Of a DNA stretch of 64,000 bases, positions 2,842 through 57,851 are shown in pieces; positions within the stretch are counted from its first letter, which is position 1; every line of letters begins with the position of its first letter. The stretch lies in NCBI GenBank assembly GCA_963794325.1, contig CAWCDG010000003.1, positions 96,001 through 160,000 on the forward strand. The letters run 5' to 3'. The position numbers were made by a program, and so were the translations under genes. The notes under the pieces are model-generated. The model worked only from the letters and a program-made list of their open reading frames with translations, ran no database searches and was not told where the DNA came from. The DNA comes from an uncultured delta proteobacterium. Lineage in GTDB: Bacteria > Desulfobacterota > Binatia > Binatales > Binataceae.

Positions 2842-4227
2842 ATGACACTCTATGATGCTTATGGACGCGAAGTAGATACCGGCATGTTGCGCCAGGAGCA
2901 GGCGGCTCCGACGATGGCGGGCGTCCGAAATATATATTCCGTGATGCATCCGTCAATCGGACTGACGCCGGAGAACTTGTCGCGAATCTTGCGGGAGGCC
3001 GAGTTCGGGGATCCCTATCTGTATCTCGAACTCGCCGAGGAGATGGAGGAGAAGGACCTTCATTACCTCGCCGTACTCGGAACTCGCAAGAATGCGGTCG
3101 CGCAACTCGACGTGATCGTGCGGGCGGCGTCGAGTGGAGCAGAAGATCAACGCGCGGCGGCGATGGTGCGCGAGATGATCTGCGACGGCCCGATACAGCT
3201 CGACAGCGTCCTGTTCGACGTGCTCGACGCGGTGGGAAAGGGATTTTCGGCGACCGAGATAATGTGGAATACCACTGGGCGCCAATGGTTTCCCGCGCAA
3301 TTGAAATGGCGCGACCCGCGCTGGTTCGCGTTTGACTGGATATCCGGTGAGGAAATCCTGGTGCGCACCTTGAAAGGCGAAATGGTCCCGGTCGCCAACG
3401 GCAAATCGCCCGCCCGCCCGACCCATTTCGGCGGCGACGGAATACACTCGTCGATGAATCCCGGAATCGGGATGCAGCCGATGACCGCGCCTCTGACCCC
3501 ATACAAGTTCATCACGCATTTCGCCAAGGCCAAAGCGGGCCTGCCGATACGCGGAGGCCTCGCGCGCGCGGCCGGGTGGGCGTACCTGTTCAAGAACTAC
3601 GTACTAAAGGACTGGGTAACGTTCACTGAGGTATTCGGACAACCACTGAGGGTGGGCAAATACCATCCCGGCGCGTCGGAACAGGATAAACAGGCATTAC
3701 TCAATGCAGTATCGCGAATAGGCACTGATGCGGCGGCGATAATGCCGGAGTCGATGGTAATAGAGTTCACCGAGGCGCATCAGGATGGTAGTTCGGAATT
3801 GTATCAGAGATTTTGCGAATACTTAGATGCGCAGGTGAGTAAGGCAGTGCTCGGGCAGACACTTACTACTGAAATGCCTAATGGAGGAGGGTCGCGAGCC
3901 GCCGCGCAAGTACATGACGCGGTCCGTCGCGACATCCTGAATGCCGACGCGCGGCGATTGGCGGCGACGCTGGCGCGAGACCTGGTGCGTCCGATCGTCG
4001 AGCTGAATATGGGGCCGCAAAAACAATATCCGAGGATCGAGTTGGGGCTGCCGGATGACAGCGACGTGAAAGTGTTTGCGGAGGTTGTCGCGATGCTGGC
4101 GGATCGAGGGTTGAGAGTGGGGCAGAAGGCAGTGCTCGACAAGTTGGGGATCGCGCAGGCGGAGAAGGGGGAAGCGGTGCTCAGGGCGATTGGGGGGGAT
4201 GGGGGAAGGGGAGATCACTTGATTTGA
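2842..4227 (+). CDS. Mu gp29-like portal protein (DUF935 family)
   Basis: LAEEMEEKDLH, KDWVTFTEVFGQPLRVGKY and SKAVLGQTLTT are typical gp29 motifs. GGAG RBS. Confidence 0.92.
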   Translation: MTLYDAYGREVDTGMLRQEQAAPTMAGVRNIYSVMHPSIGLTPENLSRILREAEFGDPYLYLELAEEMEEKDLHYLAVLGTRKNAVAQLDVIVRAASSGAEDQRAAAMVREMICDGPIQLDSVLFDVLDAVGKGFSATEIMWNTTGRQWFPAQLKWRDPRWFAFDWISGEEILVRTLKGEMVPVANGKSPARPTHFGGDGIHSSMNPGIGMQPMTAPLTPYKFITHFAKAKAGLPIRGGLARAAGWAYLFKNYVLKDWVTFTEVFGQPLRVGKYHPGASEQDKQALLNAVSRIGTDAAAIMPESMVIEFTEAHQDGSSELYQRFCEYLDAQVSKAVLGQTLTTEMPNGGGSRAAAQVHDAVRRDILNADARRLAATLARDLVRPIVELNMGPQKQYPRIELGLPDDSDVKVFAEVVAMLADRGLRVGQKAVLDKLGIAQAEKGEAVLRAIGGDGGRGDHLI

Positions 4228-4316
4228 TGTGAAACCCTGCGCGGGTTTCACGCTTCCGCGGCAGGGGTGACCCCTGCACCCAGTGTTAAGAGAAGATGCG
4301 GGGCTTCGCCCCTGTT
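4224..4316 (+). repeat. Multi-hairpin repeat family A, copy 1
   Basis: TGTGAAACCC-N5-GGGTTTCAC, GCAGGGG-TGA-CCCCTGC-ACCC and GGGGC-TTC-GCCCC. Confidence 0.85.
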
Positions 4317-4385
4317 CGAAGTTGGGTGGGGGGAGTGTCTCGCGGCTGGCGACATTTGTCGCCAGTCGCTGGCGTGCGGGTGGGG

Positions 4386-5188
4386 TCAGGGTTTTGTGCC
4401 GGTTCGTTTTCTTTGGCGGCGGGCTCTGCGGCGGTGTTTCATCTCTAAGAAGATGTCGTCGTAGATGAGTTTTCGGATTGCGAAGCCGGAAGTGGGGAAG
4501 TGGACTGCAGAGTCGGTGGGGGAGCGGCGGTAGCGATAGAGCTGGATGCCGTTCCACCAGGTGGGCGAGTGGTTGCGCGGGGTGCGTAGATCAAGAATCA
4601 GTTTGAAGTTGGCGAGAGCGCGCGCGATGAGATTGTTGGCGGAGCGGGCGGCGCGCTTGTTGGTGTCGTCGATGATGACTACTGCGTCGTCGGCCAAGTG
4701 CTGGATGGCGAGGGCGAGACCGTCGTACTGATCGCGAAAGGAGTGGCCGCCGTCGTAGAAGTAGGCGCCGATGCGGGCGGGACGCCATGGCGCGGCGTCG
4801 AGGAAGTCGCGGAAATCCATGTCGTGGAAGGTGACTTGGCCCACTGCGGTGTGCTCGTCGAGGGTGCGGCGGAGCGCGTCGGCGGCGCCGTCGAACTGCG
4901 AAAAATTGTCGCATGCAACGATGCGCGCGTGCGGGTTGGAGGTCGCGGCGCCGACCAGGCTCGCCCCTTTATAGCATCCGACTTCAACGTAAACTTCGCC
5001 CTCGTCGAGCGATGCGACGGCGGAATTGAGCAGGCGCAGCTTGTTCTCGGTGGCCATCCCGGGAATTTCGTCGAGGATGTGGGAGAGCGAGCGATCGAAG
5101 CGGGATGGGTCGAGCGGGCGAGGCGTCGCGAGTCGGCAAATTCGGGCCATTGCGCGCGGCATCGCTCGAGGAAATCGTCAAACTTCAT
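4386..5188 (-). CDS. Class I SAM-dependent methyltransferase (Methyltransf_24-like); frameshift near 5100, probably an error
   Basis: YVEVGCYKGAS, YFYDGGHS and IIDD motifs. The ATG at 5188 (MKFDDFLERC) is in a different frame from the body. Confidence 0.75.
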
Positions 5189-5224
5189 ATTTTCAGGAAA
5201 GTGTTGCGAGCAGCCAGGTTAACC

Positions 5225-5725
5225 TTACCAATACATCCCGGGGCCCATCGGGCCGACGAGGCCCATGCCGTACGGATTGAACATCTCTTCCTGCTCCTCC
5301 ATATCCTGCATCTGGATGGCTTCGAGGTTCTCGCGGGAGAGCTCGCCCTCCTTGGCCTGGAACTGCTGGTTGAGTTTCAATTTTTCGTACTGCTGATAAT
5401 TTTCCTCGGTGCCGATGTACATGCATTTACAGAAATTCGGATCGGCCATGTAGTAGTGCAGGGTGCCGGTCTTGCCGACGTAGTAGTTGACGTCGAATGG
5501 AACCAGCGACGCGAGTTGCTGCTGGCGCTGGGGAGTGTCCGCGGGGAGCATCCGGAAGCCGGCCGCCGCGAGCATCGGCTCGACCTGCTCGGCCTGCTGC
5601 TCGGGGGTCGGCGGCTCCGGCGGTTTTATCGAACCGCATCCGGCGAGCGCGACGGAGAATGCGGTAAGCATTAGGATGAGGATGGTCGAGGCGGTCGGGC
5701 GTCGCGGTATCAGTTCGTTATTCAC
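5225..5725 (-). CDS. Hypothetical lipoprotein
   Basis: Lipobox LAGC; host-like codon usage. Confidence 0.7.
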   Translation of the reverse strand: MNNELIPRRPTASTILILMLTAFSVALAGCGSIKPPEPPTPEQQAEQVEPMLAAAGFRMLPADTPQRQQQLASLVPFDVNYYVGKTGTLHYYMADPNFCKCMYIGTEENYQQYEKLKLNQQFQAKEGELSRENLEAIQMQDMEEQEEMFNPYGMGLVGPMGPGMYW

Positions 5726-5760
5726 TTTTCGCTTTTCACTTTTTCAATCGAGCGATGCGG

Positions 5761-5792
5761 AGAAAAGAAAGGGCGGCCGTCGCGGGCCGCCC
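5761..5792 (-). terminator. Rho-independent terminator
   Basis: GGGCGGCC-N6-GGCCGCCC followed by TTTCTTTTCT on the minus strand, just after the 5806 stop. Confidence 0.7.
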
Positions 5793-5805
5793 CATCGGGC
5801 GTAAA

Positions 5806-6468
5806 TCAGGGGACGGAGTTGACTGGATTGCCAGTGGCGTCGAACAAGGTCAGCGCGCCGGCGCCGTCAGAGTTCAGCGTGAGCGAGGCGCGGGTCTTGC
5901 CGTCGGTGCCGATCAGGGCGAGGCCGGGGCGTCCGTCGGGCGTGAGATCCATGCCGATGCGGCCGCGGTGGTCGTCGCCCAGGCGCAAGGTCGGAGTGCC
6001 GTCGGTGGCGACGATGATCGAGGCGCGCGGATTGCCGGCTTTGTCCATCAGACCGATACCGGACTGGCCGTCGGGGGCGACGCCGAGGGTGGCCTGCGGG
6101 CTCGCATTCTCGTCGAACAGAACGACGCGGGCGACGCCGTGGGTGAGGCCGACTTCGATGCGCGGCTTGCCGTCGTGGCCATAGATGCCGAGCGCCGGGG
6201 CGCCGTCGGAGCCGACGCCGAGTCCGGCGCGGAGCGCGCCGGTCCCATCGAAGACCGCGAGTTGCGCGACGCCTTTGTTGGACACGTCGAACGCGCCTCG
6301 GGTCTTGCCGCGGGCGTCGACCAGCATGAATTTCTGCGCGGTGATCATTCGGGGCGCGTTGGCCGCGTCGACGGTGCGCGTGGCGAAGAAATGGCCGGAC
6401 ACGGCGCCTCCGATGAATGCGGCAGCAAGAGTCAGGGTGACAAACCCGATTCGCTCTTTGATGGTCAT
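5806..6468 (-). CDS. Exported or membrane-anchored beta-repeat protein (~8 x 22-23 aa LxLxDxxGxxRAxL units)
   Basis: N-terminal hydrophobic segment, visible tandem repeats, AAGGAG RBS. Confidence 0.8.
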   Translation of the reverse strand: MTIKERIGFVTLTLAAAFIGGAVSGHFFATRTVDAANAPRMITAQKFMLVDARGKTRGAFDVSNKGVAQLAVFDGTGALRAGLGVGSDGAPALGIYGHDGKPRIEVGLTHGVARVVLFDENASPQATLGVAPDGQSGIGLMDKAGNPRASIIVATDGTPTLRLGDDHRGRIGMDLTPDGRPGLALIGTDGKTRASLTLNSDGAGALTLFDATGNPVNSVP

Positions 6469-6587
6469 GGTCGCGGTCTCCTTTCCAGTGCCGAGGTTAG
6501 GGCAATTTTCGGGGTGAAGATTAGCAGTTGGAGGCGGAAAGGAAAAATCGGGAAAGTGGCGCGGCAGAGGTGGGCGAATTCACGTGA

Positions 6588-6705
6588 TTGAATGTGAAAT
6601 CAGCGGTGGGTTTCACGCTTCCTTCGGCAGGGGTGACCCCTGCACCCGGTGAATCGCGAAATGTCGAGGACGACCTTTCGCTCTCAGGTTCTTTTTTTCT
6701 GTGTC
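6588..6705 (+). repeat. Repeat family A, copy 2
   Basis: Hairpins H1 and H2 plus GCGAAATGTCG-AGGA-CGACCTTTCGC and CTCAGGTTC. Confidence 0.85.
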
Positions 6706-6785
6706 GTCTTGCGTATGGAAGTTTGGCCGCTCACTATCAGGCTTGAGAAAATCGCCTGCGTGATGCCTTGAAAGTGGGGCTGGAA

Positions 6786-7625
6786 ATGATTTCGAAAGTT
6801 CTCGGTGCGGTGTTGTTGGTTTTGTTCCTGGGCGTTCGAACGCTGAGCTTCGGGGCCGAGACGCGTCCATCGGTTGCGGATGTTTTGGGTCAGGTACAAG
6901 CCACCTATGACAATATGCAGAGCTACTCGTCAGTGGGTGATATAACGTCGAAGATCTCAATGCCTAGTTTGGGACCCGTCGAGGCGCATTACACTTTCTC
7001 GATCAAGCTCGCGCGGCCGAATCTCTATCGGGTCGAATGGGAGTCACGCGCGCCTAACATGGTCAGCAGCGGGGCGGCCTGGTCGGCCGGCGATGGAAAT
7101 TTCGTAACCGTGCCAGGGCAGGCGAGTCCGATGCGGCCGAAAGACATGTCGGCTGCGTTGCCAATGGCGACAGGAATTTCAGGTGGAGCTGCGGGAACCA
7201 TTCCTGAAATCTTCTTTGGCTTGGACAACAACCGCCTCAAGCCCGGCAAGGACGCCGCATTCAAACCGGACGCCGAGATTGAAAACGACCCATGCTACGC
7301 GATCGCAGAAAAAACCGGAGCGATGGGAGTGACCGTTTGGATCTCGAAGAAATCAAAGTTGCTCCGGCAGATAAGAGACGACTTCAGCGGTCCGATGAAA
7401 ATGCCGGAAATGACCGATGAGGAGACCAGGAAGGTCATTCAGTCGATGGGCCAGACGCCAACCGCTGAGGCGATCAAGAACATGAAAGAGCAGATGGTCA
7501 GTATGCGGGCAATGATGAGCTCGGGAATGTCGGGTTTCAGCATCCAGGTTCAGCGGCAAATCGTGGTGAACCCGACCTTGCATAAGGCCGATTTCACCCC
7601 GCATCCATCTCCCGCGAGCAAGTGA
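6786..7625 (+). CDS. Exported LolA-like / DUF2092-like protein
   Basis: Signal peptide; FSIKLARPNLYRVEW and VWISKKSKLLRQI resemble LolA-fold proteins. Confidence 0.65.
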   Translation: MISKVLGAVLLVLFLGVRTLSFGAETRPSVADVLGQVQATYDNMQSYSSVGDITSKISMPSLGPVEAHYTFSIKLARPNLYRVEWESRAPNMVSSGAAWSAGDGNFVTVPGQASPMRPKDMSAALPMATGISGGAAGTIPEIFFGLDNNRLKPGKDAAFKPDAEIENDPCYAIAEKTGAMGVTVWISKKSKLLRQIRDDFSGPMKMPEMTDEETRKVIQSMGQTPTAEAIKNMKEQMVSMRAMMSSGMSGFSIQVQRQIVVNPTLHKADFTPHPSPASK

Positions 7626-7682
7626 CGCTGGGTGCGGAGTTATGTTGCCCGAATTGAGATGTTGGGGGTGCGCGCGACTGAA

Positions 7683-7888
7683 TTGAATGTGAAACCCTTC
7701 GCGGGTTTCACGCTTCCGCGGCAGGGGTGACCCCTGCACCCAGTACTAATCGCGAAATGTCGAGGACGACCTTTCGCTCTCAGGTTCTAGGGAGGAGGCG
7801 GGTGGCCGAGGATTTACCTCGCCCGTTACTTTACGGGAGAGGCGCCCGGGCGCATCGCGACCGGTAGGTGAGGGTGCTGCGGTTCAAG
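7683..7888 (+). repeat. Repeat family A copy 3 plus an adjoining REP-like module; left arm of a long inverted repeat
   Basis: Reverse complement matches 9242-9318 and 9398-9510. Confidence 0.85.
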
Positions 7889-8009
7889 GCAACGGAGTAG
7901 GACGCTGATCTAGTTCTTTCCCGCGCTTTATCACGACCACTTGGCAGGTTGAGTCATATCCACGCGCCTCGCCTTCCTCGTCGCCGGAATCGGAAACACC
8001 GTGCAACAC

Positions 8010-8351
8010 TCATTCGGGCTCATTTGTGTCGATCTGAATGTCCAAAAACTGAATTATAAAGGGCGTTTGATATGCGGTCGGATGACGTGTCTGATCCAAG
8101 ACGCGGTCCACCAAATCACCCGTGTTTCTGACATAGCCGTAAGTTGAAACTTGCTTCGTTTCGTAGTCCTGCCAGCGGACAATTTGACCGGTGTAGCCAT
8201 CCGCCTTTCGGACGTGGTCTTCATAACAAGTACCTTTTACGTCAATGACTTCCAGCAACGTCGAATGGTGCTCCTTTTGGGACTTGTTGTCGCAGGCGCA
8301 GAGAGGAAGACAAACCAAGAACGCGAGCGTGGCCGCGAACCTACAGTTCAT
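8010..8351 (-). CDS. Orphan lipoprotein (lower GC)
   Basis: MNCRFAATLAFLVCLPLCAC lipobox-like start inside ORF 8010..8405. Confidence 0.55.
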   Translation of the reverse strand: MNCRFAATLAFLVCLPLCACDNKSQKEHHSTLLEVIDVKGTCYEDHVRKADGYTGQIVRWQDYETKQVSTYGYVRNTGDLVDRVLDQTRHPTAYQTPFIIQFLDIQIDTNEPE

Positions 8352-8382
8352 ATTCTTTTGCGGACAGGGCCAAGGTGGCAGA

Positions 8383-8703
8383 CTAGAAGTCCGCCTCCGT
8401 TTCACCGACTTGCCCTATTGTCTTTCCCGTCAGGTTGGAAAGGAACGCGAACAGTGGTTTTTGTAGGGCGATGTCTTTGACCCCGAAACTCAGCATTGTC
8501 TTGGCGCGGAAGGCACTTCCCGGATCGCTGCATCTTACCAAAACGCATTCCTCGTCGGGCATGGGTTCAAGCACTTCTCGTACGACAAGACTGACGTAGA
8601 CATTTGGATCGCCCGGTGTGCGGCGGTCGCACTCTATCGCAACCGCACTCCCTAATCTCGGAGGCCAGCAGATCTTCTCATGGTCTTTCAATAACTTCTT
8701 CAT
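8383..8703 (-). CDS. Hypothetical protein (lower GC)
   Basis: 106-aa ORF with a GGGGGA RBS before the ATG. Confidence 0.55.
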   Translation of the reverse strand: MKKLLKDHEKICWPPRLGSAVAIECDRRTPGDPNVYVSLVVREVLEPMPDEECVLVRCSDPGSAFRAKTMLSFGVKDIALQKPLFAFLSNLTGKTIGQVGETEADF

Positions 8704-9155
8704 TCGTCCCCCTAAAACGGAAAACTTCCCTCTAGATAACTACGCGGCGTCGCCTTACGGCGCAATCTGGCTTTCGATAACCGTCCACAGTCTGCTCGTT
8801 AATCTGCCAACCGGAAACGTGGCAGTCTCTGAAAGAAATGTGTCTTTTGTGTCTAAGCCTAATAAACCCGGCCGGATTCGAGGGCCCGCCGATCTGGGAA
8901 CCCCCTCGCTATTTCCTATCCGATACGGATGCGAGCCGATGCCGTTAGATGCGCCCCTGACTACCTTAGCAATCTGGTTCCTTCTATCGTTCGGCTACTG
9001 CTGCGCACCGAATTATTCGGCGTCGTATTGCACGCTGACGCGGCGGCACTGGCTCGGAACGTGGCCATTCTGAGACACGAATAATGTTGTCCCTCACCCG
9101 ACGCGCGCGGACGCGCGTCGGCGGGGCATCGCCATCGTGGGACGAGGCGAAGATA

Positions 9156-9194
9156 AGAGCCGGGATTCTTCGCTGCGCTCCGAAGGACACAAAG
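9156..9194. repeat. REP-like family D (CCGGGATTCTTCGCTGCGCTC..AATGACACAA)
   Basis: Further copies at 9357-9397 and inverted at 15014-15048. Confidence 0.7.
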
Positions 9195-9241
9195 AGGAGA
9201 GCCAACACGAAACCCTTACGGTCGACGTGCCATATATACAT

Positions 9242-9510
9242 CTTGATCCGCAGAACCCTCACCTACCGGCGGCTGCGCCCGCCGGCCGCCTCTCCCGTAA
9301 AGTAACGGGCGAGGTATTTGGAGGCGGCGAGCGGCCGGGCAAGACTACTCAAAGAAGGAGCCGGGATTCTTCGCTTCGCTCTAGAATGACACAAGGAAAG
9401 AACCTGGGAGCGGAAGGGCGTCCTCGACATTTCGCGATTTCCTGTCACTAAGGTGCAGGGCTTAGCCCTGCCGAAGGAAGTTTGAAACCCATCGCGGGTT
9501 TCATTTTAAT
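9242..9510 (-). repeat. Right arm of the long inverted repeat: REP module, family D copy and family A copy 4
   Basis: Reverse complement of 7683-7888 with an extra internal family D unit. Confidence 0.85.
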
Positions 9511-9514
9511 CTCG

Positions 9515-9868
9515 CTAGGCGTCGTCTTCGCCTGAGTCGTCGGCCGAATCGGCGCCGCTCTCGATTTGCTCGACTGCTTCGTCGAAGTCTGGGCCGCTGA
9601 ATTCGTCGCCCATTTCTTTACCCATCCGCTTCATCATCCGGGCGACGCTCTTTGGATCGTTCTCGTCGATGTCACCCATCTTCGATGGGTCCGCGAGCGA
9701 ATCCATCCGCGATTCCTCGCTGCGCGGCATCGCGAAGCGGGACATGAGGCGGCTCATTTTTTTTCCGCCGCAATGGGTGCAGACCGCTTCGACTTTTTCG
9801 CTGATGCGCGTGGTCAAGACGCTGGTAATACGGCGGCACTTCTCGCAACGATATTCGTAGATCGGCAT
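9515..9868 (-). CDS. FmdB-family zinc-ribbon regulatory protein
   Basis: MPIYEYRCEKC...CTHCGG signature. Confidence 0.9.
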   Translation of the reverse strand: MPIYEYRCEKCRRITSVLTTRISEKVEAVCTHCGGKKMSRLMSRFAMPRSEESRMDSLADPSKMGDIDENDPKSVARMMKRMGKEMGDEFSGPDFDEAVEQIESGADSADDSGEDDA

Positions 9869-9924
9869 GTCATCCGATTGTATCCGCTGTTAGAGCTTGT
9901 GAGCGAATTGAACAGCGGGCGAAA

Positions 9925-10048
9925 TGGAGCGCGCGCAGCGCGCGAACTCGGAGACCGGAACCGGCTTCGCGTGTGGCGCGAAGGTGTCCGGAAGCCAGAA
10001 GCCATGTCCTCCCGTCGCTAACGCTCCCGTCGTCAGGGTGACACAAGA
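9925..10048. repeat. Dispersed repeat family F
   Basis: 9925-9990 matches 43407-43472 with two mismatches; both are followed by a CAGG(G/A)TGACACAAG module. Confidence 0.8.
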
Positions 10049-10120
10049 GGCTTGATTGCGGTGGAAGGGTCGGGATACTTGGAGCCGAAGAACCCTTCGG
10101 CGTTGCTCAGGGCAGGCTCT

Positions 10121-10250
10121 AGCCCTAACCCCTTTTTTCGGTCCTCGCGGGAAGGGGAACCGGATACCTAACCCCTAACCCCTTCCCATAGTGGGAAGGG
10201 GAACCGGACGAGTGGGATGGGGAACCGGACGAGCGGGAAGGGGAAGCGGA
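10121..10250. repeat. REP-like family C (CCTAACCCC..CCCCTTCCC-loop-GGGAAGGGGAAC) with ~21-bp tandem half-sites
   Basis: Same unit at 16437, 16499, 19274, 21812 and 38515. Confidence 0.8.
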
Positions 10251-10308
10251 TTTTTGGGGAATCAGCGTCGAGATGAAGGTGGCGATCGATCTTTTGATTC
10301 GGATGTTG

Positions 10309-10384
10309 GTGGCACAGGCTTTAGCCTGTGATTTTCTGGTTCATGCAAGTCCAGGAAAGAATCACAGGCTGAAGCCTGTGCCAC
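10309..10384. repeat. REP doublet (REPIN-like), family E
   Basis: GTGG-CACAGGC-TTTA-GCCTGTG and an inverted copy 32 nt later; 37-bp exact inverted match at 25927-25963. Confidence 0.85.
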
Positions 10385-10388
10385 GTCT

Positions 10389-11174
10389 ATGAGTGACCTT
10401 CGGCTGATGTGGCGCAACACGCGGATGGTCGTGTTGTGCGCTATTTCGGCTGCGCTGTATGCGGCCGTGCTGGTGCCGTTCAAGGTGGTGCCGTTGATTC
10501 CGGGCGTCACCGAACTGCGTCCGGCCAACGCGATTCCGGTAGTCTGCTCGTTCCTGTTCGGGCCGGCCGCGGCGTGGGGTTCCGCGATCGGAAATATGAT
10601 TGGCGACTTTTTCGGCGGCGTATCGCCGGGCGACATCGCGGGATTCCTGGCGAACCTGGCTTATGGATGGATCCCGTACAAAGTGTGGGAATTGATCGCG
10701 CGTGGCGAGAGTCCGGTTCTTAATTCCCCTCGGATAGTTTTCAAGTACGTTGTCGCATGCCTGGCTGCGAGCGTTTTGTGCGCCGACCTGGTCGGATGGG
10801 CCGATAACGTATTGGTCATCCGGCCGTTCGCGATGCTGGGTAACGTGATCATTTTCAACAACATGATTTCTGCGCTCGCGCTCTCGCCGTTCATCCTGGC
10901 GGCGGTCTATCCGCGGGTGAAAAAAGGCCGGATGCTTTACACGGACGTGATGCCGGAGGTGAAGCTCAAGCCGGTGCCGATACGCGCTACGGGTTTCGCG
11001 ATACTGATAACGGGCGAGGCTGGCGCGTGGATTTTTGGAAATCTGCTTTCGACCGGGTACTGGGCGCCGAAGTTCCTGCCGGCGTGGATGATCGTCGCGC
11101 CGTACGATAAACCGATCCTGATTATAGTCAGCCCGTTCCTGGTGTTGGCGTTCGCGGGACTCTTAATGATGTGA
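10389..11174 (+). CDS. ECF transporter S component (QueT-like)
   Basis: AALYAAVL, ELRPANAIP and FGPAAAWGSAIGNMIGD; followed by ECF ATPase and T genes. Confidence 0.8.
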   Translation: MSDLRLMWRNTRMVVLCAISAALYAAVLVPFKVVPLIPGVTELRPANAIPVVCSFLFGPAAAWGSAIGNMIGDFFGGVSPGDIAGFLANLAYGWIPYKVWELIARGESPVLNSPRIVFKYVVACLAASVLCADLVGWADNVLVIRPFAMLGNVIIFNNMISALALSPFILAAVYPRVKKGRMLYTDVMPEVKLKPVPIRATGFAILITGEAGAWIFGNLLSTGYWAPKFLPAWMIVAPYDKPILIIVSPFLVLAFAGLLMM

Positions 11175-12907
11175 AAACCGTTTTTTCAGTGAATCGTGGC
11201 CAGCACGCAGTGTCGGTTCAGGGAGTGACCTTCACGTATCACGGCGCGGATCGGTCGGCGCTTCGGGCGGTGAGTCTCGTGCAGAATGCGGGCGAGATGA
11301 TCGGGGTGATGGGTGCGTCGGGCGCTGGCAAGTCGACTTTTGCGAAGTGCCTCAATCGGATCATCCCGGAGTTCGAGGACGGCGATTTTCACGGCGCGAT
11401 CCGTATCGCCGGCGAATCGATCGAACATCTGCGGGTATGCGACCTCGCGCCGAAGGTCGGCATGGTGTTTCAGGATTTCGAGTCGCAGTTGTTTTCGACC
11501 AACGTCGCACACGAAGTTGCGTTCGCGATGGAGCAAGTCGGAATGGACCGCGCCGAAATGGATCGCCGAATCATGCCCGCACTGGAAGCCGTCGGGCTGC
11601 GTGGCTTCGAGCATCGCGATCCGATGTCGTTGTCGGGCGGCGAAAAGCAGCGGCTGGCGATCGCGTCGGTGCTGGCGCTGCGCCCGTCGGTTATCGTGCT
11701 CGACGAGCCGACCACCGATCTCGATCCGGAGGGCAGGGCGGAAGTCTTCGAGCTGATCAGAAAATTGCGCGGGCAAGGCTTGAGCCTGATCGTGATCGAG
11801 CATGAGTCGGAGGAGCTGCGCGCCGCGGACCGTATCGTGGTGCTGCGCGAGGGCGAAGTCGCAGCGGACGGACCGCCGGCGGAAGTGTTCGCGCGGACGG
11901 AGCTGCTCACCGCGTGCGGCGTGCGTCCGCCGGGCCTGGGCCGCGCACTCGAGCTGCTTGGAATCGACGCGCAGGCGAAGAGCGTCGAGCAGGCTTACGA
12001 GGTGATCGTGCGCGCGTATCCGAGCGTGGTGGGAACGACGTATGACAGTATCGCGCGGTCTCGCGTGCCCGCAGCGCCGAAGGCGGAGGATAATGCGATC
12101 GCCGGTCCGGCGTTTATCGAGATCGAAAACCTGAGCTACAGCTACGCGGGCGGGCCGCGAGTGCTCGACTCGATCGATCTCAAAGTTGAAGCCGGCGAGT
12201 TCCTCGCGATCGTCGGGCAGAATGGTTCCGGGAAAACGACTCTCGCGAAGCATATTGTGGGACTGCTGCAGCCGGCGACGGGACGAATCACGATCGACGG
12301 CAAGGACCGTGCGCAGATGCGTCCGGCGGAGACGGCGCGCGAGGTCGCGTACGTTTTCCAGAATCCGGACCATCAGATTTTTGCCGCGACGGTTGATGAT
12401 GAAGTTGCATTCGGGCCGCGCAACTTCGGGCTGGACGACGGCGAGATTCGACGGCGATGCGACGAGGCGCTCGAAGCGGTAGGACTTCAGAACGAGCGCC
12501 AGAGCGATCCGTTTATGCTCAGCAAGGGAGAGCGGCAGCGGCTGGCAGTCGCGAGCGTGCTGGTGCTGCGGCCGCGGATGTTGATACTCGACGAGCCGAC
12601 CACCGGGCTGGACCATCGCGAACAACTTCGCATGATGGGGCTGGTGCGCGACCTCAACCGCAGTGGGATCGCGATCGTGATAATCACGCATACGCCGTGG
12701 CTGGTCGCGGAGTACGCGCGGCGGGTGGTGCTGATGCGCAAGGGCGCGAAGATTTTCGACGGCGGGGTGCGCGAGTTTTTTATGCAGGAGCAGCTGCTGC
12801 AATCGTCGTCATTCCGCGCTCCTGAAATAACCGAGCTGAGCCGCCGTTTCGGGACGCTGGCGCTGACCACCGACGAATTCGTCGGGTGGGTGAAGGGGCG
12901 ATCCTGA
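11171..12907 (+). CDS. ECF transporter fused double ATPase (A-A')
   Basis: Two Walker A motifs (GASGAGKS, GQNGSGKT), LSGGEKQR/LSKGERQR and two LDEPTT. Confidence 0.93.
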   Translation: MKTVFSVNRGQHAVSVQGVTFTYHGADRSALRAVSLVQNAGEMIGVMGASGAGKSTFAKCLNRIIPEFEDGDFHGAIRIAGESIEHLRVCDLAPKVGMVFQDFESQLFSTNVAHEVAFAMEQVGMDRAEMDRRIMPALEAVGLRGFEHRDPMSLSGGEKQRLAIASVLALRPSVIVLDEPTTDLDPEGRAEVFELIRKLRGQGLSLIVIEHESEELRAADRIVVLREGEVAADGPPAEVFARTELLTACGVRPPGLGRALELLGIDAQAKSVEQAYEVIVRAYPSVVGTTYDSIARSRVPAAPKAEDNAIAGPAFIEIENLSYSYAGGPRVLDSIDLKVEAGEFLAIVGQNGSGKTTLAKHIVGLLQPATGRITIDGKDRAQMRPAETAREVAYVFQNPDHQIFAATVDDEVAFGPRNFGLDDGEIRRRCDEALEAVGLQNERQSDPFMLSKGERQRLAVASVLVLRPRMLILDEPTTGLDHREQLRMMGLVRDLNRSGIAIVIITHTPWLVAEYARRVVLMRKGAKIFDGGVREFFMQEQLLQSSSFRAPEITELSRRFGTLALTTDEFVGWVKGRS

Positions 12908-13695
12908 TGCCGATTTATCTCTACATCGATCGCGGCACCTTCGTTCATCGGCTGCATCCGACGGTCAAGGTGTTCTCGCTGTTCGTCATGTTCTGGTCGG
13001 TGTACTGGGTGGACAATCCGGTTGCGCTGATCCCGATTGGGCTGGTGATGCTGTGGATTGCGCAGCTCACCGATTCGTGGCCGAACTTCTACCGGCTGCG
13101 CTGGCTGTTTGCGATTTTGGTCTTTACGACAACGATCGCATGGATGGTTTTTTATCGGCGGGGCGCGGTGCTGGTGAATATCCCGGTATTTCACGTCAGC
13201 CGATTGTCGCTGGTGTTTGGCCTGGGGCGAGGAATCAAGCTGGCGGAATTGCTGGCGGCGTCGGTGCTGTTTCTGTCGACCACCAAGATCGAGGAGTTCA
13301 CCTACGGACTGCAGCGGATGCGGGTGCCGTATCGGGTCAGCTTCGCGATCTCGCTCTCGTTCCGGCTGGTGCCGCTGTTTATCGACTCGGCCGTGACGAT
13401 CGTCGATGCCCAGCGGTTGCGCGGTTACGATTTCAACCAGGGCGGTCCGCTCGAGCGCGTGCGGCGCTACGTGCCGGTGGTGATTCCGGTTTTCATGGGC
13501 GCGTTGCGCAAGGCGAATAACATGGCGATGGCTCTGGAAGCGCGCGGCTTCGGCTTTATCCACGAGCCGACGACGTTTATCGAATACCCGGTGACATTGG
13601 CGGATATCGCGGCGTTCGCGTTTCTGATCGGCCTCGGAACAGTATATTTCATGCTGTACTACACGGGGCTGGGCGGAATCGGGCCCGTGAAATAG
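12907..13695 (+). CDS. ecfT: ECF transporter transmembrane T component
   Basis: LHPTVK, AQRLRG and ALEARGF motifs; TGATG overlap. Confidence 0.9.
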   Translation: MPIYLYIDRGTFVHRLHPTVKVFSLFVMFWSVYWVDNPVALIPIGLVMLWIAQLTDSWPNFYRLRWLFAILVFTTTIAWMVFYRRGAVLVNIPVFHVSRLSLVFGLGRGIKLAELLAASVLFLSTTKIEEFTYGLQRMRVPYRVSFAISLSFRLVPLFIDSAVTIVDAQRLRGYDFNQGGPLERVRRYVPVVIPVFMGALRKANNMAMALEARGFGFIHEPTTFIEYPVTLADIAAFAFLIGLGTVYFMLYYTGLGGIGPVK

Positions 13696-13781
13696 CAAAT
13701 TAGTGAAATAACTCAAGTAGCGAACAACTTCGCCGATGCTTACTATCGGCTGGCAAATCGAAGACATCGCGGGGAACGGTA

Positions 13782-14831
13782 ATGAGTGTCAAATCAGAGT
13801 TTCTGAAAAAACCGATCGAGCATGTCGATATCACGCGCGAAAGCGTGGTGCCGATTGTCGAAGCGATGGGGCAGATGGCGTACAGCGCGCGCGACTTGCA
13901 TCGCGCGGCCACGATTTACGATCGGATGCTGCGCGATCGCGACTGCGGCGTGATCCTGTGCCTGGCGGGGTCGCTGATCAGCGCGGGGCTGAAGCGGGTG
14001 TTTGCCGACATGATTCGCAATCACATGGTCGATGCGATCGTCAGCACCGGCGCGAATATCGTGGATCAGGATTTTTTCGAGGCGCTCGGCTTCAAGCATT
14101 GGATGGCCGAGGATCGCTTCAAGTACGGACTCGATGACGACAAGCTGCGCGAGCTGCATATCGATCGAATCTACGACACGCTGATCGACGAAGACGAACT
14201 GCGCGTGTGCGACGAGACGATTCATAAAATCACCGACAGCCTCGAGCCGCGGCCGTATTCGTCGCGCGAATTCGTCGGCGAGATGGGCAAGTACCTGGCC
14301 GAGACGGGCGCGAAGAGCGGCGCGAGTATCGTGCTCGAGGCGTATCGCGAAGAGGTCCCGATTTTCTGTCCGGCGTTCAGCGACTGCTCGGCGGGTTTCG
14401 GACTGGTAGCGCATCAGGCGGCGCGGCATGGGAAGCCCAAGGTCTCGATCGACAGCGCGAAGGATTTTTACGAATTGACACGGCTCAAGGTGAAGAACGA
14501 AAGCACGGGACTGTTCATGATCGGCGGCGGCGTCCCGAAAAACTTCGCGCAGGATATCGTCGTCGCGGCTGAGGTGCTCGGGCATGACGTGCCGATGCAC
14601 AAGTACGCGATTCAGATCACCGTCGCTGACGTGCGCGACGGCGCACTCTCAGGCAGCACCCTCAAAGAAGCCAGCAGCTGGGGCAAAGTCGATACGACCT
14701 ACGAGCAAATGGTGTATTGCGAGGCGACAATCGCAGTCCCGCTAATCGTCGGCTACGCATACCACAAGCGCGGCTGGGAAGGGCGCTCGTCGCGCAAGTG
14801 GAGCTCGGCGCTGGATAAGGATCAGGTGTAG
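13782..14831 (+). CDS. Deoxyhypusine synthase-like protein (probable homospermidine synthesis, SpeY-like)
   Basis: IVSTGAN, GGGVPKNF and GALSGSTLKEASSWGKV with the catalytic Lys. Confidence 0.92.
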   Translation: MSVKSEFLKKPIEHVDITRESVVPIVEAMGQMAYSARDLHRAATIYDRMLRDRDCGVILCLAGSLISAGLKRVFADMIRNHMVDAIVSTGANIVDQDFFEALGFKHWMAEDRFKYGLDDDKLRELHIDRIYDTLIDEDELRVCDETIHKITDSLEPRPYSSREFVGEMGKYLAETGAKSGASIVLEAYREEVPIFCPAFSDCSAGFGLVAHQAARHGKPKVSIDSAKDFYELTRLKVKNESTGLFMIGGGVPKNFAQDIVVAAEVLGHDVPMHKYAIQITVADVRDGALSGSTLKEASSWGKVDTTYEQMVYCEATIAVPLIVGYAYHKRGWEGRSSRKWSSALDKDQV

Positions 14832-14857
14832 GTGGGGAAGGGGGAAGCCATTACATC

Positions 14858-15096
14858 TTATGTGAAACCCTTCGCGGGTTTCACGCTTCCGCGGCAGGGG
14901 TGACCCCTGCACCCAGTATTAAGAAAAGAAGCGGGACTTCGTCCCTGTTACGAAGTCAAATGGGTAGGAGCCGTCCTTCCACCGCTGTTTTCGTGTTGTT
15001 TCGGCCATTCCATCTTTGTGTCATTCAGAGCGCAGCGAAGAATCCCGGATCCTTCTTCCCTTCTCCCTGTAACGGAGAGGATTAAGGTGAGGGTCC
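14858..15096. repeat. Repeat cluster: family A copy 5 (14858-14949), family D (15014-15048), family C-like (15058-15096)
   Basis: Direct sequence match to other copies; lies between convergent genes. Confidence 0.8.
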
Positions 15097-15154
15097 TTAT
15101 ACAGCGCGCGATTTTTCGCGCGCGACTTAGATTCTGATTTCAATCACCCGGCGC

Positions 15155-16198: not shown

Positions 16199-16276
16199 TT
16201 CGGTCGTAGCCTCGTCGTTCAGCTTAGCAAGTGATGGCCGCGGCGAAGAAGACAGGGAAGAGGAAAACTTGATCTA

Positions 16277-16403
16277 ATTCGAAACCCACGGTGGGTTTCA
16301 AACTTCCTCGGCAGGGGTGATCCCTGCACCCGGTGAAAAGTACTAATCGCGAAATGTCGAGGACGACATTTCGCTCTCAGGTTCTTTTCCTGTGTCATTC
16401 TAG
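16277..16403 (+). repeat. Repeat family A, copy 6
   Basis: Includes the perfect 11-bp stem GCGAAATGTCG-AGGA-CGACATTTCGC. Confidence 0.85.
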
Positions 16404-16429
16404 TGTGATGTCCCGCAAGTATCTTTCAG

Positions 16430-16564
16430 GAACAGAGCCCTAACCCCTGGCCCCTTCCCCAAAGGGGAAGGGGATTTTAAGAAACATTCCGCGATGTCCT
16501 ATCCCCTCGCCCCCTTTCCCGCGGGAAAGGGGGAACAGAGCAGAAAATTCAAGAGAGTGTGATC
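16430..16564. repeat. Family C REP pair; empty-site paralog of the IS1595 target
   Basis: Colinear with 19266-19362 joined to 21758-21800. Confidence 0.85.
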
Positions 16565-16867
16565 TATCCCCCTCACTGTGCTTTGGCTTCGTTTGGGATG
16601 ACATAAAGATACGACACACAAACAAAAAGACATCGCAATAAGCGACTTCGTCTGATTTTCACCCACGTCATCAAAATCCGCTGAACCATTCGTTCACCGC
16701 GGCGTAACGCCTTTCATAATGAGGGCGGCCGCTACAGAAGGAAGGTTCTGGAGTACTTTGCGACGATATTGAGTCGCAACAGTGTTCGTAATGAACACTG
16801 CGACGCAAGCAGCGACGGTGCCAAGAGGTCTAATAACAGCACTCGATAGAAATCAGAGGTGAAAACA

Positions 16868-17626: not shown

Positions 17627-17649
17627 GTTCTACGTGATCCGCTGAGTGG

Positions 17650-24183: not shown

Positions 24184-24257
24184 GGGGTGACCCCTGCACC
24201 CAGTGTTAAGAAAAGAAAATCGCAAAATCGCGAGGACGCGCTTTTGCTCTCGGGTTC
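24184..24257 (+). repeat. Repeat family A, copy 7 (5'-truncated, covariant H3)
   Basis: GGGGTGACCCCTGCACCCAGTGTTAAG then GCAAAATCGCG-AGGA-CGCGCTTTTGC. Confidence 0.75.
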
Positions 24258-24498
24258 AAGGGGAAGGAGACCGCGAGGCGAGGCAGGTGGACGACAGCGC
24301 GCAATGTCAGCCCCGAATACAAAGTCGGGCTATGCGGTTCCGCGATGCCCGACGACGAACACGTGCCTTCTGACCCCCCTTTGAGGTTGCCCGCCCTTGG
24401 TGTAAAGAATTCGTCAGCGCGTGATCACCTACCGCGCGGGTAGCGTGGGATCGAAACAGGCGGACGGCCGCCTCAACCCGGTTGAGAGGGAGAACACG

Positions 24499-36232: not shown

Positions 36233-36244
36233 AGGATCAGAACC

Positions 36245-43390: not shown

Positions 43391-43588
43391 CCAGGATGAC
43401 AGAGGGTGGAGCGCGCGCAGCGCGCGAACTCAGAGACCGGAACCGGCTTCGCGTGTGGCGCGAAGCTGTCCGAGATCCTTCCTGCCGCTCGCGTTGCTCG
43501 CTCTGTCAGGATGACACAAGAAGCTCGCGTTGCTCGCTCTGTCAGGATGACACAAGAAGCTCGCGTTGCTCGCTTTGCTAGGATGACA
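43391..43588. repeat. Family F copy followed by about three 36-bp tandem units
   Basis: GCTCGCGTTGCTCGCTCTGTCAGGATGACACAAGAA at 43487 and 43523, degenerate third unit at 43559. Confidence 0.9.
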
Positions 43589-43617
43589 GCAAGGGCCTGC
43601 GCGGTTTGCAAATTTCT

Positions 43618-48308: not shown

Positions 48309-48326
48309 AAGTCGCGCCGGGCTGAT

Positions 48327-48358
48327 TTTTTCTTAATACTGGGTGCAGGCGTCCCCCC
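48327..48358 (-). repeat. Repeat family A remnant, copy 8
   Basis: Reverse complement reads CCTGCACCCAGTATTAAGAAAA, as in copy 5. Confidence 0.6.
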
Positions 48359-48421
48359 TTCTTTTGCCTCGTTGCGGACGCGACTGTAGGCTCATTTCGA
48401 TGACGACAACGGAGGTGCGGT

Positions 48422-56166: not shown

Positions 56167-56925
56167 TTAACCGGCCATCGTCAGGCCGCCGCTTACGCTT
56201 AGGACCTGGCCGGTGACGAAGTCCGAGTCGGCACTGGCGAAGAATGCGACCGCGCCGGCGAGGTCGGAGGGTTGGCCGAGGCGACGAAACGGGATTCCGC
56301 GCGCCATCGATTCGAGAACTTTCTCGCGTCCCGCCATCGCGGTTTTGAGTAGCGCGGTGTCGGTTGGGCCGGGGCAGACGACGTTGACGTTGATGTGATT
56401 CGCGGCGAGCTCGCGCGCCAGCGTTTTCGAGAAGCCGATGATAGCGGCTTTGCATCCGGCGTAAACCGCTTCGCCGGTCGAGCCGACGCGGGCAGCGTCG
56501 GAGGAAATCGAAATGATTTTACCGGAGCCGCGGGATTGCATTCGCGGCGCGACCGCCTTGCAGCAATTGAGCATCCCGCGATAGTTGATCGCGATCACCT
56601 TGTCCCAAAGATCGGGAGTGGTTTCGACGAACGGCATCAGGATGTCCCATCCGGCGTTATTCACCAGGATGTCGATCGGGCCGAGTTCCCGCTCGACGCG
56701 ATCGGCAGCTGCGATAGCCTCGTCGAGTTTGGTGACGTCGAGCGCGACCGCGATTGCGGATGCTCCGTCGCCGCGAATTTCTTCAGCGGCGCGCTGCGCG
56801 GAATCGAACTGAATATCCGCCAACGCGACCTTGGCGCCTTCATCGGCGAGTCGCGACGCGATTGCACGCCCGATTCCCTGCGCGGCGCCGGTTACGATTG
56901 CGACCTTGCCGGTCAGACGGGTCAT
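56167..56925 (-). CDS. SDR dehydrogenase (BadH-like)
   Basis: TGAAQGIG, NNAGWD, SDAARVGS.GEAVY and VCPGPTDT. Confidence 0.92.
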   Translation of the reverse strand: MTRLTGKVAIVTGAAQGIGRAIASRLADEGAKVALADIQFDSAQRAAEEIRGDGASAIAVALDVTKLDEAIAAADRVERELGPIDILVNNAGWDILMPFVETTPDLWDKVIAINYRGMLNCCKAVAPRMQSRGSGKIISISSDAARVGSTGEAVYAGCKAAIIGFSKTLARELAANHINVNVVCPGPTDTALLKTAMAGREKVLESMARGIPFRRLGQPSDLAGAVAFFASADSDFVTGQVLSVSGGLTMAG

Positions 56926-56934
56926 AAAGCTACT

Positions 56935-57690
56935 TCAACTTGCGATCCAACCGCCGTCGATGATGAACGGAGCGCCCGTTGCGAACGGGGCTTCGTCACT
57001 GGCGAGGAAGAGCGCGGTGTGCGCGATTTCGTCGGCGCTGCCGACGCGGCCCAGCACCGAGCTGCGCTGAATGAATCGCGGTTGCAGTCCGTCGGGCCCG
57101 GTGATCCGATCGACCATCGGCGTGTGAATCACTCCCGGGCAAATGCAGTTGACGCGAACGTTGTAGCGCCCGTACTCGAGCGCCGCGACGCGGGTCAGCG
57201 AAATCACTCCGGCCTTGGCCGCGCAGTATGCGGCCGCGCCCTTGAGCCCGACGATCCCCGCCACCGATGCGGTGTTGATCACCGCGCCGCCGCCGCGCTC
57301 GACGAGTTTCGGCAGTCCGTACTTCATTCCGAGCCATACGCCGCGCAGGTTGATCGCGATCACTCGGTCGAAGGCCTCCTCGCTGAGCTCGGCCATGAAA
57401 CCGGACTCGCCTTCAATTCCCGCGTTGTTGTAAAGCACGTCGAGTCCGCCGAACGCGCGGACCGTTTCTTCGACCATCGCGCGCGCGTCCTCGGAGTCGG
57501 AGACGTCGGCGCGCAACGAGATAGCGTCACCGCCGGCCGATTTGATCATTCGCGCAGTCTCGGCTGCCGAGGACTCCACTACGTCGATGGCCGCGACTTT
57601 CGCGCCTTCGCGCGCGAACAAGACTGACGCCGCGCGACCCATTCCAGAGCCAGCGCCAGTGATCAGCGCTACTTTTCCTTTGAGTCTCAT
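56935..57690 (-). CDS. SDR dehydrogenase
   Basis: TGAGSGMG, NNAG and YCAAK. Confidence 0.93.
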   Translation of the reverse strand: MRLKGKVALITGAGSGMGRAASVLFAREGAKVAAIDVVESSAAETARMIKSAGGDAISLRADVSDSEDARAMVEETVRAFGGLDVLYNNAGIEGESGFMAELSEEAFDRVIAINLRGVWLGMKYGLPKLVERGGGAVINTASVAGIVGLKGAAAYCAAKAGVISLTRVAALEYGRYNVRVNCICPGVIHTPMVDRITGPDGLQPRFIQRSSVLGRVGSADEIAHTALFLASDEAPFATGAPFIIDGGWIAS

Positions 57691-57762
57691 TGATACCGCT
57701 CCATTGGCCGCGAGATTAGCGCATTTCAGTGCGATGCGGTTAGCGGGATGCAATTCACTTTA

Positions 57763-57851
57763 TTTAATGTGAAACCCGCGGTGGGTTTCACACTTCCTTC
57801 GGCAGGGGTGACCCCTGCACCCACCGAAAGATGCGGGACTTCGTCCCTGTT
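57763..57851 (+). repeat. Repeat family A, copy 9
   Basis: H1, H2 and GGGAC-TTC-GTCCC. Confidence 0.85.

Follow-up and report, generated by a model that had tools for sequence, protein, structure and literature searches.

A mosaic multi-hairpin intergenic repeat of Binatia with signs of selection on its fold

Repetitive extragenic palindromes (REP) and bacterial interspersed mosaic elements (BIME) of Enterobacteria are present in hundreds of copies, are co-transcribed and act as mRNA stabilisers, and a role of REP in mRNA stability is established for the malEFG operon of Escherichia coli. BOX elements of Streptococcus pneumoniae (boxA-boxB-boxC) are 100-200 nt long, have predicted stable folds and are mobilised by an unknown enzyme. 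Insertion sequences of the IS200/IS605 group usually leave no target duplication, and their hairpins act in single-stranded DNA (ssDNA), with short complementary guide and cleavage sequences nearby. Here we describe a repeat, family A, found in a 64,000-nt stretch (hereafter the window; assembly GCA_963794325.1, contig CAWCDG010000003.1, positions 96,001 to 160,000 of the forward strand) from an uncultured delta proteobacterium of the Binatia, which are abundant uncultured soil and peat bacteria. The reading that we favour, with our confidence about evenly balanced, is that family A is an undescribed mosaic intergenic repeat of Binatia, of the REP/BIME/BOX kind, and that its single-strand fold, probably formed in RNA, is under selection.

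The modules of family A follow one order: an AT-rich lead (ACTTNATTNAATG) with stop codons inside it, a 9-bp hairpin H1 (GTGAAACCC-N5-GGGTTTCAC), a pyrimidine linker ([GA]CTTCC plus 3-4 nt), a 7-bp hairpin H2 with a 3-nt loop (GCAGGGG-TGA-CCCCTGC) that is followed by ACCC, a purine-rich spacer (AGTNTTAAGARAAG), and then a third hairpin, either H3a (GATGC-GGGRC-TTC-GYCCC-TGTTAGAAC) or H3b (AATCGCRAAATGNCG-AGGA-CGNCATTTYGC-TCTCAGGTTC). The core from lead to spacer is constant and about 95 nt long, and 3' of it stands H3a, H3b, H3c, H3d or no hairpin. A preliminary description of the window had listed nine copies and a stub in this fixed order, without terminal inverted repeats. Inspection of all ten places agrees with it, the nine copies being seven full and two partial ones (Table 1), and the ends of the conserved unit are unrelated to each other. 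H3a is present at 4224, 14858 and 57763 and H3b at 6588, 7683, 9398(-), 16277 and 24184 (each number is a position within the copy that it names). The H3a loop is the 3-nt TTC closed by C-G, as first described, and a reading as a UUCG tetraloop was dropped. The H1 pattern with up to three mismatches matches the window 7 times against 0.01 expected, and none of 100 shuffles reaches 7. A covariance model (91 copies) run unfiltered on the window returns the same seven full copies at 71-96 bits, a weak match at 24110-24208 and no others, a result that indicates completeness rather than independent detection because the seven full copies were in the training set of the model.

Table 1. Family A copies, partial copies and an empty insertion site in the window. 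ORF, open reading frame.
Feature	Position	Strand	Score (bits)	Remarks
Full copy 1, with H3a	4197..4323	+	86.9	Mu-type portal ORF (2842-4227) terminates at TGA within the lead
Copy 1, G-rich box and lead	4197-4228
Copy 1, H1	4229-4251
Copy 1, linker	4252-4260
Copy 1, H2	4261-4277
Copy 1, ACCC	4278-4281
Copy 1, spacer	4282-4297
Copy 1, H3a stem-loop	4300-4312
Copy 1, tail	to 4323
Full copy 2, with H3b (6652-6691) and T-run	6562..6699	+	84.8	H1 5' arm degenerate, GTGAAATCA
Full copy 3, with H3b	7657..7788	+	83.8
Full copy 4, with H3b	9395..9536	-	71.2	H2 variant GCAGGGC-TAA-GCCCTGC, tail ACCTTAG; starts 3 nt past the stop of zinc-ribbon ORF 9515-9868(-)
Full copy 5, with H3a	14830..14956	+	84.1	Starts 6 nt past the stop of the deoxyhypusine synthase gene (13782-14831)
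Full copy 6, with H3b	16247..16390	+	82.5	Divergent intergenic region; H2 closed by a G.T pair (GTGAT)
Full copy 7, with H3a	57737..57860	+	96.1	Antisense between minus-strand genes, SDR 56935-57753 and 57932-58537
Partial copy: H2 3' half, ACCC, spacer, H3b variant GCAAAATCGCG-AGGA-CGCGCTTTTGC	24184..24258	+	17.8	Different 5' module, GACGCCTGCGCGGCGGGCGGCA, at about 24150-24171
Remnant: degenerate H2 3' arm GACGCCTGC, ACCC, spacer AGTATTAAGAAAAA	about 48310..48362	-		Without H1 and without H3
Stub: lead ACTTTATTGAAT and GTGAAAC only	2379..2398	+
Empty site: 12-nt spacer AGGATCAGAACC	36233..36244	+		CoA-transferase stop TAG 36230-36232; SGL-lactonase ATG 36245

In one pattern scan (GCAGGGNTRANCCCTGCACC) of a species-representative genome collection, whose matched stretches are numbered with an L below, the H2+ACC core is present in at least 134 stretches of public genomes. 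Among the matches listed, nearly all come from metagenome-assembled genomes (MAGs) labelled Candidatus Binatus, Candidatus Binataceae or 'uncultured delta proteobacterium', and the window is syntenic with several matched MAGs at 81-88% nucleotide identity. Outside Binatia, the matches listed include single ones in MAGs labelled Verrucomicrobia, Dehalococcoidia and Stellaceae, and a MAG labelled Acidiferrales has contigs with full elements. The alphaproteobacterium Polymorphobacter carries a REP-like GCCTCCGGCGG-GCAGGGGTGACCCCTGC-ACCC (L006, L044, L092, L108, L114, L115, L122), often in inverted pairs (L115, L092, L122), and has the H2+ACCC core and a similar 5' flank in common with the Binatia element, across phyla. 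Two matches were set aside, one in Prevotella (L040) as a chance match in a coding region and one (L078) as a CRISPR repeat. About a third of the copies begin with a Shine-Dalgarno-like GGGGAAGGGG box, and in the GGAAC subtype (e.g. L001, L037, L042) the end of H1 and the linker read CACCTCCTT, identical to the 3' end of 16S rRNA (anti-Shine-Dalgarno).

The status of family A as an undescribed multi-hairpin repeat, claimed from the outset, is consistent with the database searches. Rfam gives no match at the gathering score across the window, and the nine matches at E<=5 over 2300-16600 all lie outside family A copies. A blastn search with the copy at 57737-57870 finds no match in PLSDB plasmids or INPHARED phages. 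The H2 sequence was not found in open-access PubMed Central papers or bioRxiv, where titles and abstract starts show nothing relevant that joins Binatia or Binatota with repeats, and two 2026 preprints that deal with the discovery of non-coding elements contain no mention of Binatia in the passages and term matches covered. Like REP/BIME and the REPINs of Pseudomonas, family A is made of short GC-rich palindromes that are strictly extragenic, often lie near stop codons and combine as mosaic units, and H2+ACCC alone is REP-like and forms the inverted pairs of Polymorphobacter. In contrast to REP and REPIN sequences, family A lines up three unlike hairpins in one direction, shows loop-to-flank complementarity and has an unrelated sequence. 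A GTAG-type head is not present, the constant flank 3' of H2 being ACCC (GGGT on the other strand) with no GTAG or CTAC, and no REP-associated tyrosine transposase (RAYT) occurs among 169 flanking proteins and 64 window ORFs. In Binatia, copies stand alone or in direct tandem (L011, L093) and form no inverted pairs; facing pairs occur there only where two convergent genes each bear a full element (L008, L048, L051). With BOX, family A shares a modular intergenic layout of fixed order and variable module content, but it belongs to a different phylum and has a different sequence. We know of no report of compensatory and pseudoknot-type covariation as clear as this in BOX.

The stems of family A vary in a compensatory manner. 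The core alignment holds 91 distinct H1-H2 cores and was seeded on the H2 core, hence the inner six H2 pairs are fixed by the search and uninformative, and the relaxed expression left free the outer H1 pairs, the A/G-T/C pair of H1 and the closing pair of H2. This closing pair is GC in 76 cores, CG in 11, UA in 2 and GU in 2, and it is unpaired in none of the 91. In H1, the pair at alignment columns 38-58 is AU in 75 cores, GC in 15 and GU in one; pair 36-60 is UA in 75, CG in 9 and other in 7; and pair 35-61 is GC in 73, AU in 4, UA in 4, CG in one and other in 9. Overall, 98% of the cells in the core alignment are paired, compared with 34-52% after the partners are slid by 1-3 columns. Pairs of H3b (29 copies) read AU 15, GC 13 and GU 1; GC 16, UA 10, GU 1 and other 2; and GC 26 and CG 3, with a recurrent U.C mismatch in 9 of the 29 and the loop AGGA in 19 of 27 typed copies. 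Pairs of H3a (39 copies) read AU 29 and GC 4, with 6 gaps, and GC 37 and CG 2. Across all three alignments pairing is 95-98% and falls to 32-62% after the 1-3 column slide, and none of 500 shuffles matches the observed covariation score, although such controls overstate the significance because repeat copies share descent. The compensatory changes first noticed in H2, H3a and H3b of the window copies thus hold on larger alignments, and these unusually clear signs in the sequences suggest that the folded shape is kept by selection. Folding energies do not discriminate, the z-scores of -0.4 to -4.5 for the sense strand being matched by similar values for the antisense strand. A count of 42 G.U pairs in H3a from a hairpin finder was not used, being biased by the scoring. 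A palindromic operator for a dimeric regulator was rejected, by inference, because symmetric compensatory changes fit pairing and not base-specific reading by a protein. Long-range pairing of the G-rich box (GGAAG) with the linker (CTTCC) also lacks support; it is predicted for the copy at 14858, but many copies are without the box, and the CCTCC subtype has no matching change.

Three further linkages, all absent from the preliminary description, involve the parts between the stems. In the first, the central bases of the H1 loop can pair with the three bases directly 5' of H2. Across the 91 cores, H1-loop column 50 and pre-H2 column 72 are GC in 42, CG in 38, non-complementary in 9 and gapped in 2, and the neighbouring pairs are CG 78 or UG 6 on one side and GU 65, AU 8 or GC 2 on the other. 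In the rarer variant of the window (loop ..CGC, linker ..GCG) the pairing is one register off. Judged by these columns, the linkage would be an H-type pseudoknot stacking on H2. The H1 pair 38-58 is tied to linker base 64 without exception (A-T-T 75, G-C-C 15, G-T-T 1), as expected of isosteric U.A-U and C+.G-C triples, and this linkage may be one historical event. The middle base of the H2 loop is tied to the tail, TGA occurring with ACCCAG or ACCCGG and TAA with ACCTTAG or ACCTTGG (GC 69, AU 18, other 4); this is sterically odd with a 3-nt loop, and we offer no explanation for it. Seven of the eight combinations of the three polymorphic sets are seen, and the sites of the sets are interleaved (38, 50, 58, 64, 72, 82, 94). 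Because the partners stay linked while the sets reshuffle, the pattern argues for selection on pairing and not for mere inheritance of a few founder haplotypes.

These linkages also permit a bolder reading, which we regard as very improbable, in which the H1-linker-H2 core would be a bacterial cassette for making 3' ends, analogous to the triple-helix/mascRNA module of MALAT1. MALAT1 and MEN-beta combine a triple helix with a tRNA-like mascRNA that is cut by RNase P, and the 3' end of 4.5S RNA is a hairpin followed by ACCC; the likeness, which applies to the cassette proposal only, is an end-burying structure directly upstream of an acceptor-stem-like hairpin plus ACC(C). H2+ACCC, as a 7-bp stem that opens with G-C and is followed by A-C-C, would mimic the 3' end of a tRNA acceptor or of 4.5S RNA, and RNase P would cut on its 5' side. 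The upstream mRNA would then end in ...UCG, the three bases that pair with the H1 loop. Along the H1 purine strand 5'-G-R-A, the linker 5'-C-Y-U would run in parallel orientation and form C+.G-C and U.A-U triples, so that exonucleases would not reach the 3' end, and a hairpin would stand at the start of the downstream RNA. This proposal would cover the loop-linker complementarity, the three-way linkage (A-U-U 75, G-C-C 15 and G-U-U 1 in RNA letters), the invariant ACCC and the H2 core found across phyla, and, if true, it would be a new bacterial route to stable mRNA ends. However, base pairing immediately upstream of H2 should impede RNase P ahead of the cut, the G-C-C state may go back to a single inherited change, and a quarter of the testable copies are antisense. 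Furthermore, MALAT1 and MEN-beta are eukaryotic nuclear RNAs, and the putative triple helix of family A corresponds to one covarying position.

Family A copies are placed in close relation to genes, which were called by a heuristic based on GC content at third codon positions (GC3) that reproduced the Pfam-supported genes of the window. All seven full window copies are intergenic. Of 67 distinct full copies whose flanks were long enough, 29 are found between co-directional genes (22 in sense and 7 in antisense orientation), 14 between convergent and 13 between divergent genes, and 11 at the edge of the locus. With a co-oriented gene upstream, 32 of 39 copies have the stop codon of that gene within -25..+30 nt of the lead start, and some upstream ORFs enter the lead and end on its TGA or TAA. 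The flanking genes include MutS, AlaRS, RecA, L21/L27, rnpA, yidC, trmE and RF-2. The copies behave as intergenic parts next to genes and not as free-standing RNA genes.

The alternative of free-standing small-RNA genes, for example an RNA that titrates CsrA through the AGGA loop and has its own promoter in the lead, is extremely unlikely in our view. The fixed order, the strong structural conservation, the AGGA loop of typed H3b copies and the AT-rich lead are consistent with such genes. However, no sigma-70-like promoter scored at any lead or spacer of the copies within 2000-17000, and the TTGAAT / TATTAA spacing did not fit when checked by hand. Upstream ORFs run into the lead and end there, each copy has one GGA site, in the H3b subset only, H3 is interchangeable or absent, and no canonical terminator scored. 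That a repeated structured RNA can be associated with intergenic repeats has a precedent in the TwoAYGGAY RNA (RF01731) of Pseudomonadota, which is described as multi-copy, with GGA-loop hairpins and a pseudoknot, at a fixed position beside REP arrays (10.64898/2026.09.22.753630). In contrast to TwoAYGGAY, family A has one AGGA loop, confined to H3b copies, and there is no match to it in sequence or in Rfam. Inspection by eye also showed a poor fit to a small peptide (ATG-TGA in the lead; ATG in GATGC) and to a signal for frameshifting or readthrough, and these ideas were dropped.

Comparison of orthologous sites shows both persistence and exchange. Four window sites are comparable to a filled site in another species, and the window is filled at three of them (4224, 6588, 14858) and empty at one. 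The copy at 4224 is orthologous to one in L047, with flanks 81% identical and a nearly identical core, in which the differences are in the H1 loop, the linker and an 11-nt indel of the lead. The copy at 6588 is orthologous to one in L016, with H3b in the window and H3a in L016, and synteny stops directly after H2. The copy at 14858 is orthologous to one in L053, with H3a in the window and no third hairpin in L053. L053 joins the deoxyhypusine synthase gene and its family A copy to a YCII gene (window 33496), and window positions 14913-33424 (~18.5 kb) are without counterpart there; L084 joins window 9251-9503 directly to 26017-26272. The synteny breaks coincide with elements (6650, 14913, 9503). 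The site that is empty in the window is occupied in L004 by a full element of ~165 nt and in L056 by 92 nt of lead, H1, H2 and spacer without H3. The CoA-transferase and SGL-lactonase genes that flank this site, 12 nt apart in the window, look co-transcribed, and insertion into such an operon junction argues that the element is not a strong terminator. The lack of a target-site duplication noted at first seems to hold in general, but the sole full comparison of a filled with an empty site departs from it, with the L004 insert flanked on both sides by an 8-nt direct repeat, GAAGGAAC; this is a single case, and GGAAC also belongs to one common lead type.

Other loci show the same exchange of modules. 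L030 and L055 have different subtypes at one orthologous site, with H3a in one and none in the other. A rough regular-expression sort downstream of 151 H2 cores gives H3a 50 (a few of them false), H3b 28, H3c 11, H3d 9 and other 53. On the 5' side, H1 is replaced in some Binatia copies (L103, L124, L125, L133, L019) by a 7-bp hairpin, GCGGGGC-N5-GCCCCGC-ACCC, directly 5' of H2, and the 5' module of the partial copy at 24184 also precedes H2 in L094 and L110. The orthologous sites indicate that the core is old and mostly retained, that the 3' hairpin is exchangeable and that sites can be gained or lost.

Selfish or neutral repeat DNA with no role in the cell, kept uniform by gene conversion and with hairpins that serve its own copying or recombination, is an explanation that we hold to be quite unlikely. 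The whole-haplotype differences between orthologous copies (L030 and L055; 4224 and L047; 14858 and L053), the synteny breaks at elements, the occurrence in both orientations and all intergenic contexts, and a CC-GCGG linker/loop variant that is present in three of the seven window copies and rare elsewhere are consistent with it. However, conversion alone leaves unexplained the complementarity of reshuffled, interleaved partner sets, the persistence of discrete subtypes across species and the tight abutment to co-oriented stop codons. Subtypes are common to every sampled genome, and genome-specific homogenisation was rejected since the mean pairwise identity is equal within and between genomes (0.856 and 0.851); only the three CC-GCGG copies of the window hint at it.

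An RNA-level role is favoured by the starts at stop codons, the 22:7 sense bias, the retention at orthologous sites, the insertion at an operon junction and the G.U pairs between loop and linker, which form on the sense strand only. Of the two options in the preliminary description, an undescribed non-autonomous HUH element and a repeated structured RNA, the second is the better candidate. The selected fold would form in the sense-strand transcript, the element being part of the mRNA either as the 3' end of the upstream gene or as an intercistronic segment. The compact H1-H2 fold and the 3' hairpin may there act as a ribonuclease barrier or processing point, which would set the stability of the flanking mRNA segments by analogy with REP in the malEFG operon. 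Copies could be spread by an enzyme, or by recombination and gene conversion between copies.

Several results weigh against selection on an RNA fold. Seven of the 29 copies between co-directional genes are antisense, including that at 57737-57860. The mix of 13 divergent, 14 convergent and 29 co-directional sites (n=56) is close to random intergenic placement, and promoter regions are not depleted, indicating that the element does not avoid them. No sense-strand H1, H2 or H3 scored as an intrinsic terminator, and T-runs begin 9-12 nt past H3. The stem sequences are near-invariant (GAAACCC, and GCAGGGG where the search left it free), which points to sequence-specific recognition by a protein, equally possibly a DNA enzyme. 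G.U pairs (5) do not outnumber A.C pairs (8) in H1 and the closing pair of H2, so these helices are silent on the folding strand, and only the loop-linker G.U is informative. To these are added the heuristic basis of the gene calls and the shared descent behind the shuffle controls, and action at the RNA level is itself something that we infer. An element recognised by an enzyme at the DNA level stays alive as a rival, given the quarter of antisense copies, the lack of preference for any intergenic type and the hardly varying stems, and one element could have both an RNA role and such recognition.

In its specific form, this rival is a non-autonomous ssDNA transposon, either a palindrome-associated transposable element (PATE) of the IS200/IS605 type or a REP mobilised by RAYT, and we consider it unlikely. 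H1 and H3 would be subterminal hairpins for a Y1 HUH transposase, conserved because the enzyme needs them, and insertion would occur 3' of a short target (..AC|TT..) without duplication. As in IS200/IS605 ends and PATEs, inverted terminal repeats are lacking and hairpins lie near the ends, with 10-12 nt between either end of the conserved unit and its hairpin. At the 5' edge, TTNATT almost always has AC before it, and AGAAC|TT is seen again at the H3a end. The presence or absence at one orthologous site, the placement blind to intergenic context, and the H2+ACCC core with a similar 5' flank in the inverted, REPIN-like pairs of Polymorphobacter (L115, L092, L122) also agree with a transposon. 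The sense strand is the G-rich strand, presumed to be the lagging-strand template, at 34 of 51 loci (p=0.024), a weak bias that is confounded with gene direction; in the window, GC skew is positive throughout and 8 of 10 copies are on the plus strand.

Pfam identifies no Y1/HUH, TnpB or DDE transposase in 169 of 262 predicted flanking proteins from other genomes and in the 64 window ORFs, a sample of flanking proteins and window ORFs that is compatible with a single-copy gene elsewhere in the genome. The only transposase among the 169 scanned proteins is an IS110-family gene (L033:3111-4019), ~1 kb downstream of a family A copy, and an HUH gene was not found in two Polymorphobacter loci with 2-kb flanks. 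Nothing found supports the link to an HUH transposase proposed at first. In contrast to IS200/IS605, the complementarity of family A involves hairpin loops and not bases at the hairpin foot, and neither TnpA nor TnpB is found in this sample. The 5' boundary is diffuse, as roughly one copy in three has a G-rich box before the lead. The missing inverted pairs in Binatia and the missing GTAG-type head also argue against a transposon, and three of four orthologous sites are kept between species near consensus, unlike decaying relics. An integron attC site was rejected, as GTTAGAA misfits GTTRRRY, housekeeping genes are neighbours in both orientations and no integrase is among the scanned proteins. 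A miniature inverted-repeat transposable element (MITE) derived from a DDE transposon was rejected for the missing terminal inverted repeats.

Read as a repeat whose RNA fold is probably selected, family A presents a Binatia intergenic space built from reusable hairpin modules. The evidence for selection on the fold is stronger than for most REP-like repeats and includes linkages of pseudoknot type and possibly of triple type, making family A a clean case for the old question of whether such repeats are selfish DNA, regulators at the RNA level, or both. The covariance model can be used for masking and annotation in MAGs, where the elements mark synteny breaks and probably assembly breaks.

Other repeats accompany family A. 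Many H3b or H3a copies, at many loci, are followed immediately on the 3' side by a third repeat, TGTGTCATTC(T)AGAGCGAAGCGAAGAATCCCGG, which in the window is at about 9340-9385(-), 15020-15058 and 16390-16420. A recurring module, ...ACCTCGCCCGTTACTTTACGGGAGAGG, lies downstream of several copies (window 7800-7860; L005, L024, L042, L063, L128, L129). A second palindromic repeat, CCTAACCCCT(AA/GG)CCCCTTCCC-N4-GGGAAGGGG, occurs at 10161-10220, 16433-16492, 19261-19297, 21741-21776, 21812-21847 and 38508-38567, and also downstream of family A copies in L019, L035 and L038. A hairpin-forming element of ~230 nt with terminal inverted repeats of ~33 nt (CCTAACCTCCCCTTGTCCGAGGGGAGGTCGGCG...) is present at 2416-2650 and 596-830, the two sharing 196 nt at 90% identity. 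The element at 2416-2650 follows the family A stub, is missing from the orthologous site of L047 and matches Rfam 'miRNA precursor' families below threshold; this element looks like a true MITE. Family A copies also stand between the Mu-like phage genes at 3-4227 (Gp27-like, a 507-aa ORF without Pfam match, and the Mu portal), and the occurrence of this block in another MAG (L047/L016), at 81% identity, marks it as a prophage-like region that is old and shared.

A perfect long hairpin at 10306-10387, just 5' of a QueT/ECF transporter operon (10389-13695), is terminator-like on both strands and has sub-threshold Rfam 'miRNA' matches. Three tandem 36-nt units (GCTCGCGTTGCTCGCTCTGTCAGGATGACACAAGAA) occupy 43487-43594, the first two identical and the third 78% identical. 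A 66-nt direct repeat, 97% identical, occurs at 9925-9990 and 43407-43472, 33 kb apart.

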